NCBI GenBank assembly: GCA_964016885.1
Contig: OZ024742.1
Coordinates: forward strand, 106,578,001 to 106,642,000
From: Eledone cirrhosa
Lineage: Eukaryota
Length of the DNA stretch: 64,000 nt
Direction of reading: 5' to 3'
Shown: in pieces, positions 12,312 to 21,149 of the stretch
How positions within the stretch are numbered: position 1 is the first letter of the stretch
Layout of the letters: each line of letters starts with the position of its first letter
Notes under the pieces: generated by a model
What the model saw: the letters and a program-made list of their open reading frames with translations, nothing else
Told to the model about the DNA's origin: nothing
Database searches by the model: none
Position numbers and translations under genes: made by a program

Positions 12312-12520
<209 letters not shown>

Positions 12521-12574
12521 ATACTTGGGGAGGGTCATATTTGCGTAATATTGCCAGAATTAATAATATATATA

Positions 12575-13860
12575 TCAGAGCATGGAAAGATTAAGAAAAA
12601 AATTAGAACATTCTTCAAAAAACTAGGCCAAAGTATTACCTACGAACTGAACCATAAGAAGGTAAACTTTCTAGATGTGACTCTAAATCTAAATACGGGA
12701 TTAATAGAACCTTTCCACAAAAATAATGAAAATCTGGCCTACATTAGTTATAACTCAAACCACCCCAAATCCATAATCAGATCCATAGCACGTAGTATAT
12801 CCCTTAGAATATCCCGCTTATCCTCAAACCTAGAAATTGTTAATGAACATGCTAACTATTATAACGCAGCATTACATAGGGCTGGACATAAAGATAAACT
12901 GCAGTATATAGCGAATAAAGACAACTTAAACAAACCTAATAACAATTACACCAACCGCTCACACAAAAATAGAGGTAACAGGACTAGACATAGAGTTAGG
13001 CACGTAGCACCTAGAGTAAGCGGTCCAAACACCAATAATGTAAACCCTTGAAACAATAGAAGAATCAGAGAAAGAAAATACCTATGGTTCAACCCAATAT
13101 TCAACTCCTCTGTAAAACCAGACTGCCTTCTACATTCTTTAAACTAATAGATAAACACTTCCCTATTTCACACAGATATCATAAAATACTCAATAGAAAC
13201 ACTATAAAACTCTCATACTCTCTGGCAGCAAATATAGAATCGCACATACGCAAGATCAACCACAGAAATATCTCTAAGGAATCCGCCCCACCTATGCGCA
13301 ACATAGCACCAAATTATAAGCATAAACACATCACAATATCACAACCGCAAGCGCATACAAGCACACAGCAGCAAAACTCCAACGGGCATGAATCACAACC
13401 CACTTATAGCAGTGTACAAAACAGCAGTGTAGAAGCTGCACGAAATAACACCTCAAACTGTAACTGCCACCTACCGGATAGGTGCCCATGGGCGAATAGA
13501 TGCCTCGATTCGAGCCTAGTGTACATGTGTACGGTCAACTCAGACAACTCCACTTGGCATTACATTGGATACACCGCGGGTACTTTTCAAAAAAGATGGT
13601 ATGTGCACAGACACACGATGAAAAGTCGTGCACTTATGGGTTCTACAACCCTCGCCAAAAAAATCTGGGAACTTAAGGACAACAACACCAACTACAGTAT
13701 CAACTGGTCGAGGTTGTCGGCCGCAAAGACCTACAGTACCGGTATGTCCCCTCTAGGCTATGTAATCTAGAATTACTGTATATCCTTAGAAATGTAAAAA
13801 GGCTACTTAACAACAAGTTAGAAAGATCTATCTTCTGCAGACACAGGATCGCCACTAAAT
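12575..13860 (+). mobile_element. Penelope-like retroelement remnant (RT thumb, linker, GIY-YIG), 5'-truncated
   Basis: [11 protein letters not shown]; [12 protein letters not shown]; WFNP; FFKLIDKHFP..H.YHKILNRNTIKLSYS; CNCHLPDRCPWANRC; LVY...YIGYT...FQKRW..H. Confidence 0.93.
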
Positions 13861-14789: not shown

Positions 14790-15075
14790 TTAAAAACCTT
14801 TTTTGTATAGCAAACCGTATCACTCTTCTTTCCTGATTTATATATATATATATATATATATATTTCGTTTCTGGATTTGTTTAGCAAGATTCTTTATCTG
14901 AAAACGTGTGTTGAAACCGATATTGTTATAATTTAGGAGGGTCATGTTGCCAATAAGAAACACACGCACCAGTTGCTTTCACTCCAATTTATTATAAATT
15001 AAATTCATAAATTTAAGAATTTATAAATTTCCGGTTGGTTGGTTGGTTCCACAACCAGATGGTTGTTTATATATT

Positions 15076-15118
15076 GTCAAAGTTCTTTCGTCACACATTC
15101 TGTGACCTCTTCAGTGAC
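15076..15118 (-). ncRNA. Minimal type I hammerhead in the 3' terminal repeat of the minus-strand PLE
   Basis: Minus strand reads gtca-CTGAAGA-g-gtcaca-gaatg-tgtgac-GAAAG-aa-CTT-tgac. Confidence 0.8.
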
Positions 15119-15325
15119 TGGGGATTCTTTTCTTTGTTTTTGTGCCTCTCCTTTGTTCTGTCCTACGCCATCTTGTTTCTGTGTGTGTGTTTTGTGTGCT
15201 CAGTCTGGGCATGCGCCACATCCGGGTGTGTGTCTGTGTGTGTTTGTATTCGTTTATTTATTTGTTTACTTACATGTTACAGGTTGGTTGTTTGTTTTAT
15301 GTGCGTGTGTGTTTTCATTTTGTCC

Positions 15326-16219
15326 TTAATTGTAAGTTGTGATGTTGCTGTTCCACTCATGTTTTCTATTTAATTTTGGTTGTAATTCTTTTATGTTTAT
15401 TGCCTCTGTGATTTGTCTAAACATTGCGTCTTTTCTGTGTGTAGATTCTATTTTTATTTCTATGTTCTCTAATTTACCCTTATGTTTTATTTTAGCATGT
15501 TGGTAGAGTACAGATGATTCTTTACTATCTTGAAGGTTTCGCCAGTGTTCATTTATCCGTTCCCCTACACTACGAGCTGTCTCACCTATGTACACTATAT
15601 TTTTGTCTCTACATTGTCCTTCAGTACATCTTATGCTATATACTACATTTCTAGTTTTACAGTTAATATGGGGGCTTAATTTACAGGTTATACATTTCTT
15701 ATCTATACAGGGCGGTCTTTGAAAAGGGTATGTCTTGCTAATAAGTGTTTTTACGGAGGTACCTGGTCTTTCTATCTTAATATTGAGTTTATGTTTATCT
15801 AGGGCCCTTCTAAATTTGTAAGCTAATTCACCTCTAGGGGTTGTATCGATGAACATTACACTCTAGCATTTATTGCTATCATACCATGAGTTTATTCTAT
15901 TAGCCTTATTCCTAGTTCTTTCTATTCTATTCCAAAATTTGCTCCTATACAAGGGGCAGGTCCCATTTGTGTCATTATTTACCATTTTTTCCCATTTGGT
16001 TCTGGCTCCTCTATACACTCTGATTTTATCTCTCTGATTGTAACCAGAGCACTGCATACGGTGGATGAAGTGTTGTATGTGTCTCTCTAGTTCTTCGGGG
16101 TTGCACATGCGGGACACGTTTCTCATCACCCGTACCAAATCCGCAATGAGTATGTTGATTTAGGTATGGTCCGAAACAGCTGAGTTTCGGTGGATCAGAT
16201 ATTTGGAAGTCATGGGTTT
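15326..16219 (-). mobile_element. Penelope-like retroelement remnant of a second clade (Cx4Cx2C linker, GIY-YIG)
   Basis: KPMTSKYLIHRNSA; MQCSGY; PPCIDKKCITC; NVVYSIRC...VYIGETARS...RINEH; RQITEAINI...LNRKHEW. Confidence 0.92.
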
Positions 16220-17025
16220 GGCAAAGCGAGGACTCTGGAAACTTATTAAAAAATAATTCAGTGGTTAGAAAATAGCAAAGCGTGGACTGAATTCCTAGCC
16301 ATTGAGAAAATCACTGCCTCTGCGTCGGTGGCAAATTCAAAAAGAATCAATCACGTGACATCGAGGTCAATCAGTGGAAAGTGGTTTGCTAATAAGACAG
16401 CGGCCTGCCTGCTACCATAGCAGCAGTCATGGCCAATATTGCTCGACAAATAATTTGGAGATAATTATAAAGAATTAATATCTAGTAACATATATATACA
16501 TACAGATGCATAGCAATGCTAGCAAATATATAGGTTTTGTCTTAGTAACTTTGTGGTTCAATGCATGGGGTTGCAGAACAATAATATGAGAGACGTAAAA
16601 TAAGAAAATTATAAAATTAACGTGATTGATTCTTTTTGAATTTGCCACCGACGCAGAGGCAGTGATTTTCTCAATGGCTAGGAATTCAGTCCACACTTTG
16701 CTATTTTCTAACCACTGAATTATTTTTTAATAAGTTTCCAGAGTCCTCGCTTTGCCTGGATACTTAGATGAGAATAGTCTTCCCTCACGACGGAATGATT
16801 CTCTGTATTTTCTTCGGAAAATATATTTATTCCATTCCAGAAACTAATTAGTTGGAAGTGATATTTTAGTAAGTAAGTTAATTTTATAATTTTCTTATTT
16901 TACGTCTCTCATATTATTGTTCTGCAACCCCATCCATTGAACCACAAAGTTACTAAGACAAAACCTATATATTTGCTAGCATTGATATGCATCTGTATGT
17001 ATATATATGTTACTAGATATTAATT

Positions 17026-17032
<7 letters not shown>
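16220..17032. repeat. Interleaved inverted repeats A-x-B'-A'-y-B (rearranged HHR monomer)
   Basis: A 16220-16356 is the reverse complement of 16620-16756 (137 bp). B' 16466-16621 is the reverse complement of 16877-17032 (156 bp). Both pairs are near-identical. Confidence 0.92.
16779..16858 (+). ncRNA. Type I hammerhead, G5 mutated
   Basis: cttcc-CTcACGA-c-ggaatg...attttc-TTCG-gaaaat...cattcc-a-GAAAC-taatta-GTT-ggaag. Stem III actaattagt is palindromic. Confidence 0.75.
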
Positions 17033-17073
<41 letters not shown>

Positions 17074-17078
<5 letters not shown>

Positions 17079-17726
17079 TAGTTCTGTTTAAATGATTATT
17101 TGTCTAGTTAATTTCTACGGACTAAGAAGAACAATTAGGTAAATTTTATCTGACTGTTCTTCAAACTTATAATTTTATATAGCTCTGATTAATAATTATT
17201 TATTTAATTCATTTATTCATTGAGCTACACCGTCGAAGGTAGTCTACACTCATATATGTATCTATGCCTATGTTTAAATATATGTGTTCCTTATGACTTT
17301 GTTCTATACTCCCTTACAGTAGAGTAAATTTAGACAGTAACTAACTGCTTCTTCTAGCAATAAACTTATTGGCCACCAGTCTACCCTTCACAACAGTTCT
17401 ATCTTGACCGTTAGCCACGTGATGATTTTCACCCTTTTCGAATTCGTTACTGGCGGCGATCACTTTGGAAATTTCGGTCCTGACTGAGGGAGTCTCTTTA
17501 TAAAGTTGGTGCCTCGTGGATCATGCAACGATTAGACATTTCCACAAAGTACAAGCGAAACTGTCGACAGTCGGGACTAGAGGAATATTGGTAACATTTA
17601 TCTATTATTTCTTCAAACTTACATTTTAAACTTAGCTCCGTTTAAATTATTATTTGTCTAGTTAATTTCTACGGACTAAGAAGAAAAATTAGGCAAATTT
17701 TATCTAACTGTTCTTCAAACTTTATA
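17074..17726 (+). mobile_element. Non-coding 554-bp monomer with ~100-bp terminal direct repeat, between (TA)n tracts
   Basis: 17074-17171 is repeated at 17628-17726, and the unit contains an HHR-like motif. Confidence 0.8.
17477..17577 (+). ncRNA. Degenerate hammerhead
   Basis: gtcc(tga)-CTGAGGG...gc-GAAAC-tgtcgaca-GTC-gggac. Stem III actgtcgacagt is a perfect palindrome. Confidence 0.6.
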
Positions 17727-17727
17727 C

Positions 17728-17769
<42 letters not shown>

Positions 17770-20232: not shown

Positions 20233-20428
20233 TATATATACACACACACACACATGTGTGTGTGTGTGTGTAATCATCCGCCATTTTTAACGACGTTAAA
20301 GGAGGTTAAGTTTGACACCAATGTTACACAAATGCCACATGATATAATGAATGAGTGATGAAAAGAAATGATAGAAAGAAGAAGTAAAAAACAATAACCA
20401 GAGAGAAATAGTGCACATGTTTACTCCG

Positions 20429-20955
20429 CGGGTAAACACAGCTGTTACTCAGCGGGTAAACACAGCTGTTACTCAGCGGGTAAACACAGCTGTTACTCAG
20501 CGGGTAAACACAGCCGTTACTCAGCGGGTAAACACAGCCGTTACTCAGCGGGTAAACACAGCTGTTACTCAGCGGGTAAACACAGCTGTTACTCAGCGGG
20601 TAAACACAGCTGTTACTCAGCGGGTAAACACAGCCGTTACTCAGCGGGTAAACACAGCCGTTACTCAGCGGGTAAACACAGCTGTTACTCAGCGGGTAAA
20701 CACAGCTGTTACTCAGCGGGTAAACACAGCCGTTACTCAGCGGGTAAACACAGCTGTTACTCAGCGGGTAAACACAGCTGTTACTCAGCGGGTAAACACA
20801 GCCGTTACTCAGCGGGTAAACACAGCCGTTACTCAGCGGGTAAACACAGCTGTTACTCAGCGGGTAAACACAGCTGTTACTCAGCGGGTAAACACAGCTG
20901 TTACTCAGCGGGTAAACACAGCCGTTACTCAGCGGGTAAACACAGCTGTTACTCA
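20429..20955. repeat. Minisatellite, 22 x 24 bp (CGGGTAAACACAGCYGTTACTCAG)
   Basis: Head-to-tail units with a single T/C variant position and no spacers. Confidence 0.97.
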
Positions 20956-21061
20956 AACGAAAGACAGAAAGTAGGGAACTTCTTTTTTTTTTCTCTTCAT
21001 TCAAAAGTATTACCTGAGTCTTAAAGACTCAGTGGTATATTTCGTTTCTCTCTTCCTCCAT

Positions 21062-21149
<88 letters not shown>
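21062..21149. repeat. (CTA)n(ATA)n microsatellite, likely SINE tail
   Basis: Abuts the 3' end of the minus-strand SINE. Confidence 0.85.

Follow-up and report, generated by a model that had tools for sequence, protein, structure and literature searches.

A head-to-head hammerhead retrozyme insertion fused to a Penelope-like element in Eledone cirrhosa, and a recurrent error seam that may mark a template end

The non-LTR retrozymes of animals have been proposed to be mobilised by Penelope-like elements, or PLEs (PMC7229834; bioRxiv 10.64898/2026.07.22.740005). Insertions of the EN+ PLEs are described as being truncated at the 5' end and as forming partial tandems; they include an inverted copy that is also 5'-truncated, have a tail at one end only and use microsatellites as targets (PMC8557442, PMC3846280). 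The PLE start site lies inside the pseudo-LTR, or pLTR (PMC2377424, PMC8557442), hammerheads have been described in pLTRs (PMC4209133), and a cysteine motif preceding the GIY-YIG domain has been described for the Neptune and Nematis types (PMC8557442). How pseudo-LTRs are regenerated, and how tandem and inverted copies form, has been called undefined (PMC8557442). In vitro, PAc, the Poseidon element of Anolis, uses two internal start sites of reverse transcription that bound the tail; both target strands are nicked and extended, and insertion takes place without a need for hammerhead cleavage (PMC11167929). The PAc study proposes a tandem read-through RNA and, in the parts of it compared here, reports no end-to-end jump (PMC11167929). 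Minus-strand strong-stop transfer has been described for retroviruses and LTR elements (PMC5399748), and DRT2 makes concatemeric cDNA from a linear RNA by programmed template jumping, with rolling-circle-like products (PMC12039810).

The locus considered here lies within 64,000 nt of Eledone cirrhosa DNA, referred to below as the window (GenBank assembly GCA_964016885.1, contig OZ024742.1, positions 106,578,001 to 106,642,000 of the forward strand). Positions along its 522-nt retrozyme unit (U) are counted from window position 16620 on the plus strand, and the unit is divided into A (U1-137), x (U138-257), B' (U258-413) and y' (U414-522). Positions along the minus-strand PLE (P) are 16220 minus the window position. 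The features of the locus are as follows.

14836-14861, no strand assigned: (TA)n target run bordering the composite insertion on its left, from the sequence.
14862-16219, minus strand: 5'-truncated PLE (RT thumb, GIY-YIG endonuclease and 3' region), its terminus being the long 3' site P1358.
14920, minus strand: PLE short 3' end site P1300, where the partner arm ends in inverted PLE insertions; tail of 58 nt.
14971-14977, minus strand: P1243-1249, the error seam of the PLE, which precedes an ATG at 14945-14943 by about 30 nt; unscarred in the window copy.
15080-15121, minus strand: PLE minimal hammerhead motif from a motif scan, core starting at 15114 and predicted cut after 15080.
16219-16223, no strand assigned: junction of PLE and retrozyme, with 4-nt microhomology.
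16220-16621, minus strand: left retrozyme arm, U258-522 then U1-137 (B', y', A), with no hammerhead.
16620-16621, no strand assigned: head-to-head inversion junction, 2-nt overlap.
16620-17032, plus strand: right retrozyme arm, U1-413, its terminus being the long 3' site U413.
16761-16875, plus strand: type I hammerhead motif from a motif scan, with extended stem I and palindromic stem III.
16803-16805, plus strand: U184-186, the error seam of the retrozyme, which sits at the distal stem-II hairpin's base; U185 carries the family-majority base in the window copy.
16914, plus strand: short 3' end site of the family, U295, internal in the right arm; tail to U413 of 118 nt.
17029-17074, no strand assigned: (TA)n target run at the right end, from the sequence.

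Comparison of the window with itself gives two pairs of inverted arms, 16220-16356 with 16620-16756 (137 nt, 99.27% identical, one difference) and 16466-16621 with 16877-17032 (156 nt, 98.72%, two differences). The pairs interlock, sharing 2 nt at 16620-16621, and the three positions at which the arms differ are U76, U315 and U366. The first-pass annotation had assembled these parts into a unit of about 520 nt with a 2-nt overlap at the junction, and the arms, the sum of A, x, B' and y' (137, 120, 156 and 109 nt, or 522 nt) and the recurrence of the unit all agree with that reconstruction. When the left arm, 16220-16621, was used to query the 3.0-Gb genome, 2090 candidates were obtained; the 40 that were scored were all 98-100% identical, and among them neighbouring units lie 520-522 nt apart, head to tail, at five sites. 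A long-array query returned arms of up to 5816 nt, about 11 head-to-tail units. The order B-x'-A'-y, for which a genome search had been suggested, therefore recurs at these five sites and in the arrays. Neither retrozyme arm contains a stop-to-stop frame of at least 80 aa, and the two listed frames span junctions. Judged by its hammerhead, its tandem form and its lack of coding capacity, the 522-nt element would be a non-LTR retrozyme.

The family was represented by 85 unique insertions obtained with four queries, which are the top-scoring matches to few queries and no random sample. Fifty of the 85 are head to head and 35 are single-armed. Their 3' ends lie at U295 or U413 and run into (TA)n, and any target-site duplication would be hidden inside the TA runs; their 5' ends are variable and joined via short microhomology. 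With end classes assigned by script, 39 of the 50 inverted insertions combine a long with a short end, none has two long or two short ends, and 11 have one odd end, so that the one-of-each rule holds in 39/39 canonical pairs. At the 50 inversion junctions the arms overlap by 1-8 nt in 31 cases, are joined bluntly in 6, and are separated by a gap or filler in 13. Inverted pairs of the PLE family, whose ends are at P1358 and P1300, behave alike: 33 of 36 are long plus short, one is short plus short and two have an odd end, in a set whose queries were biased toward P1358. The inverted arms are the family's normal Penelope-type two-primer footprint, with one long and one short end. Very probably, each of the two internal sites is the start of one cDNA, and the two cDNAs are joined 5' to 5'; they would be primed by both nicked strands of the target.

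At polymorphic sites, discordance amounts to 41/967 within arms and 47/811 across arms, against 34986/147298 between loci: the units and the arms of one insertion share a haplotype. Together with the tandem arrays, this shared haplotype upholds one part of the origin suggested by the first-pass annotation, namely reverse transcription of a circularly permuted or multimeric template. The inversion, which had been taken for a one-off switch of strands, is instead the usual two-primer footprint, as in the PLE. As a product of its family the window locus is ordinary, and it has a chimeric PLE junction.

The strict PLE-type footprint is direct structural evidence for a PLE-type enzyme moving the retrozyme, beyond the earlier arguments from co-occurrence and sequence kinship. 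The unit and the pLTR of the fused PLE family, which was the one compared, are not similar, and retrozyme and PLE adjoin at 6/175 TA runs compared with 12/315, no excess over chance. Neither similarity nor adjacency thus points to the fused PLE family as the mobiliser. The same counts tell against deducing a co-insertion of the two families from adjacency.

The fused PLE belongs to a family whose full unit is about 4.1 kb, and it carries an in-frame stop at 15863-15865. Its GIY-YIG domain matches Pfam PF01541 (E 5.7e-5), and C-x4-C-x2-C lies upstream of this domain in the 178-aa frame. With a CX2-5CxxC motif before a C-terminal GIY-YIG domain, the element appears to be of the Neptune/Nematis type. 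The retrozyme's left end is fused to this minus-strand PLE without a spacer, just as first described, and intact PLE family members and the unit share 4 nt at the breakpoint. The junction's uniqueness, an earlier point for checking, was borne out among the 40 scored of 1313 candidates, where the window alone covers both sides. No short-read contig bridging the junction is among the matches listed, a gap that carries no weight.

Two readings of this junction have to be weighed. The left cDNA of the window copy might have begun on PLE RNA at P1358 and switched to retrozyme RNA at the 4-nt microhomology, a proposal whose chances seem a little short of even. About evenly balanced is the alternative that the retrozyme inserted beside an existing PLE and that the intervening sequence was lost, either when priming at a microhomology deleted target sequence or through a microhomology-mediated deletion at a later time. 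Such an origin would suit the one odd end of 11/50 inverted insertions, those other than the window copy being joined to a non-PLE flank, and about 4% of the TA runs near these loci touch the fused PLE family anyway; moreover, 4 nt of microhomology suits repair as well as a template switch. A switch is further opposed by the absence of shared sequence between the two families and by their chance-level adjacency. Against it, the two parts have the same polarity and a similar age, the window has no TA run or 5' PLE remainder between or beyond them, and P1358 occupies the place expected of U295, each being about 110 nt from its own seam. Private substitutions number 8/1351 in the PLE part and 4/815 in the retrozyme part; no difference in age is seen, and this similar private divergence is compatible with a single event for both. 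Two other loci are possible chimeras: at L112:1229-2298 a PLE end abuts a retrozyme 5' end across 2 nt of TA, and at L097:1026-1783 it does so via a short PLE-like filler.

The type I scan puts the hammerhead on the plus strand of x, with the core at 16784-16790 (U165), GAAA at 16840-16843 (U221) and the predicted cut after 16853 (U234). It had first been placed in y, which is incorrect, since the same scan, with one core mismatch allowed, found no hammerhead in y or on the opposite strand. Rfam searches in gathering and E-value modes gave no ribozyme match and missed all of the hammerhead motifs described here. Sixty loci supplied 114 segments, and 102 of these have an intact core and GAAA. 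The window copy carries a private G-to-C change in the core at 16786, seen in 1/114 segments, and short-read contigs show the family base at the corresponding position; by established hammerhead chemistry the hammerhead of the window copy is predicted to be inactive.

Several observations bear on the structure of the hammerhead. Of 247 segments, 201 have G-C and 42 have A-T at the stem II pair U174-U218. At both U186 and U188 an A or a G faces U, a pairing that works on the plus strand only and thus fixes the sense strand. A sister family of 545 nt, 75% identical, has the same hammerhead fold with changed, compensatory stems. Taken from sequence comparison, these patterns indicate that the hammerhead structure is under constraint. 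As a circle, the 522-nt unit folds at -126.5 kcal/mol, compared with -96.2 +/- 4.0 kcal/mol for 30 shuffles; the fold is branched and 62% paired. Since the hammerhead is on one strand only and the fold is branched, a viroid-like ambisense circle is out (for other ribozyme classes, by Rfam only).

Comparison of units within single insertions reveals a site at which copies of the same insertion repeatedly disagree. U185 differs in 12/38 loci, against a background of 256/15076, and the result was replicated in new loci (12/25; background 456/13024). Combined, 24/63 loci differ at U185, compared with 712/28094 (2.5%), a corrected P of about 1e-19. U186 differs in 15/63 loci and U184 in 9/63, with small indels at U184-187. 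The predicted cut, U234/235, has no excess of errors (1/42 and 0/42 loci). A covalent circle made by the hammerhead is not upheld by this pattern, in which the lone copying scar sits 49 nt upstream of the predicted cut. The product at U185 is rarely G (3/85 loci). An assembly artefact is out, as T>A and T>C at U185 are present in short-read contigs, two runs of small pieces (X5 and X6) being set aside; a spliceosomal lariat junction is out as well, since haplotypes without a donor-like sequence vary equally.

In the sister family, U2, 2/12 loci differ at the homologous base, which in this small sample is no clear seam. An older neighbour family is too diverged for a seam to be read. A second, weaker hot spot within insertions is found at U124 (window 16743), where 11/57 loci change from G to T, A or C, 9 nt after AATAAG.

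The PLE has a seam of its own. At P1243-1249, 42 of 101 arms deviate, with 33 alleles; four flanking windows have 6-10 alleles, and four upstream windows of polymorphic or repetitive sequence have 11-19. The subset fetched last has 18/42 deviating arms, in a sample selected for identity downstream of the seam; among arms without tail-query selection, 23/72 are scarred at the seam compared with 23/216 in flanking windows. In 33 two-arm PLE insertions the scar is absent from 10, present in one arm in 10 and present but different in both arms in 13, and identical in both arms in none. Substitutions at this seam give T in 42/81. Downstream of it, reliable sites are too few for linkage across the seam to be read. 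The two seams stand at nearly the same distance from their start sites: U185 to U295 is 110 nt, and the PLE seam to P1358 is 112 nt. The PLE seam also follows a TATA-like motif by about 33 nt and an AATAAA by 11 nt, which in AT-rich DNA is weak evidence. In 21/30 near-full-length PLE loci the copy extends past the seam and includes a 5' pLTR whose length varies, and none of the 21 long copies stops at the seam; crossing is therefore efficient.

A further change is G to T at P1289 (window 14931), 11 nt inside the short start site. It is found in 18/82 long-end arms, 1/59 short-end arms and 0/20 internal copies, and in 3/24 long-end arms obtained without query bias. It may record passage over the second primer.

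The scars arise independently at each crossing of a seam, in the retrozyme and in the PLE. A mutation scar that is fresh, independent of the base present, a few nucleotides wide and biased toward T would fit a discontinuity in the template with non-templated addition, a combination for which there is a retroviral precedent. The chances seem even that the seam is where the template RNA has its 5' end, at which run-off, non-templated addition and an intramolecular jump would make the scar. A jump to this RNA's own 3' end would regenerate tandem units and pseudo-LTRs without a ribozyme-closed circle. As a whole, a two-primer PLE-type insertion in which the seam is a template end crossed by a jump is the best explanation, and a fairly probable one. 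A more specific form of it, given slightly less than an even chance, is that the PLE RT copies its RNA as a pseudo-circle: it would start 50-230 nt from the 5' end, run off, add a base or two and jump to the 3' end, repeatedly, the seam being the genomic fossil of these jumps. Because the RT likely jumps between the ends of an RNA, arrays are no proof of a covalent circle. The pair U174-U218 stays in phase across the seam, so that jumps would be mostly within the same molecule or haplotype.

Other results count against a jump. Run-off should leave some 5' ends at the seams, yet none pile up there: among 117 arms, with 11 complex loci left out, 9 5' truncations fall at the retrozyme seam compared with 6.9 expected (P 0.25), and in fresh samples the query-matched arm stops at the seam in 1/21 retrozyme loci, and an arm ends within P1240-1255 in 2/27 PLE loci; nor is the PLE seam a stopping point for any of the 21 long copies. 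Also on this side are the scarcity of G (cap-templated) products, the lack of a clear U2 seam, the U124 hot spot and the P1289 change.

The same results bear on rolling-circle reverse transcription of a covalently closed RNA, in which hammerhead cleavage and RtcB-type ligation would close U234/235 and the seam, inside the circle, would stem from a base modification, a structural roadblock or a 2'-5' link. Near-identical units in arrays of up to 11, the crossing of U234/235 without errors and the stable circular fold would all be expected of it, as would a U174-U218 pair that keeps its phase from one side of the seam to the other. A circle ligated in the normal way, which may also exist, would leave no scar. 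Animal retrozyme circles have been ligated by RtcB in vitro (PMC7229834), and RTs misread branch points (PMC5399748). In addition, 5' ends are concentrated just inside the predicted cut (17 compared with 8.9, P 0.005), which hints that cleaved RNA is also copied, but this cluster falls on an ATAT microhomology and its window was chosen after part of the data had been seen. Against rolling-circle copying is a scar that is 3-7 nt wide with indels, that varies at A-, C- and T-majority loci alike, and that recurs in the 4-kb autonomous PLE, 105 nt downstream of the PLE hammerhead. Rolling-circle copying is considered unlikely.

A second alternative is that the templates are ordinary read-through transcripts of genomic arrays, with some duplication at the DNA level, and that the seam reflects a hot spot in the DNA itself, for example where the element's endonuclease nicks its own sequence. 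Uncleaved RNA is indeed the main substrate in vitro, and the endonuclease nicks the element's own pLTR in vitro (PMC11167929). Alternating unit haplotypes in L206 and L207 (G000:C1604) suggest a dimeric template or unit duplication, and the alternating shared variants of L206, L207 and L076 fit the latter. The age of the insertions speaks on both sides: the oldest third of loci is the most discordant at the seam (18/22), but the youngest third already has it in 9/21, with a pair discordance of 0.40 compared with 0.017 expected, and there is no significant trend with age (rho 0.15, P 0.23). A DNA hot spot also fits poorly with substitutions to T that outnumber deletions, with short truncated PLE arms that are scarred at their first crossing, and with scars never common to both arms of one insertion. 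Altogether, read-through templates with a DNA hot spot are a quite improbable account. Under the preferred reading, two-primer insertion with a jump at a template end, the seam predicts, to the base, where RNA ends should lie (U185/186 and P1244-1248), and these coordinates make a jump, a true circle and a modified base decidable at single-base resolution. Pseudo-circle copying, if true, would account by a single step for pseudo-LTRs, for partial tandems and for retrozyme arrays, and would make a hammerhead-closed circle unnecessary for transposition.

Other repeats surround the locus. At 17073-17738 (plus strand), in the same TA run, is a partial tandem of a separate 554-nt family (2044 candidates, best matches 81-93% identical) that is not alignable with the 522-nt unit; it has a hammerhead-like motif at about 17476-17577 with a palindromic stem III and an atypical core. 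The sister retrozyme family (L077:3362-3968, L115-L144; 4151 candidates) has the same head-to-head and tandem footprint. A second PLE remnant at 12513-13770 (plus strand) starts with a 29-nt inverted piece resembling the P1300 end, and a 24-nt tandem array at 20300-21090 has open frames on both strands.

Compared with known systems, the element agrees with animal non-LTR retrozymes in lacking coding capacity, in being repeated head to tail with one type I hammerhead in each unit, and in occurring as dispersed monomers and multimers (PMC7229834; bioRxiv 10.64898/2026.07.22.740005). Its 522-nt unit is longer than the 170-400 nt first described (PMC7229834; Cervera and de la Pena 2020) and lies within the wider range of 51-972 nt (Li, Clavereau and Pollet, bioRxiv 10.64898/2026.07.22.740005). 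Those parts of the retrozyme descriptions that were compared mention no pair of fixed ends, no head-to-head arms and no error seam (PMC7229834; bioRxiv 10.64898/2026.07.22.740005). The tails, 118 nt in the retrozyme and 58 nt in the PLE, exceed the 30-40 nt of EN+ PLEs (PMC8557442, PMC3846280). The two start sites of PAc did not differ by strand in vitro, whereas the genomic pairs here have one of each (PMC11167929). DRT2 differs in that it serves bacterial defence, jumps precisely and does not integrate into a genome (PMC12039810). With the EN+ PLE footprint the present one shares variable 5' truncation, a partial tandem, an inverted truncated copy, a tail at one end and a (TA)n target, but here it is found on a protein-free repeat and the strict one-of-each rule has been counted. 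No report of a fixed PLE error seam or of a strong-stop-like jump was found in the open-access literature, supplements aside; the error seam is the new element of the present analysis.

In L1 twin priming, two target primers also give head-to-head arms with microhomology at the joint; the arms correspond to neighbouring parts of a single linear RNA, with priming at the poly(A) and at a variable site. The arms of the present family, in contrast, generally overlap (in the window over U1-137 and U258-413) and both of their start sites are fixed. Overlaps of hundreds of bases indicate that this is not single-pass L1 twin priming. Retroviruses have a mutation hot spot at the U3-R border. The process proposed here would differ from strong-stop transfer in that target DNA at (TA)n serves as the primer, that a tRNA primer, an integrase and a true LTR are all lacking, and that the jump would repeat, giving arrays.
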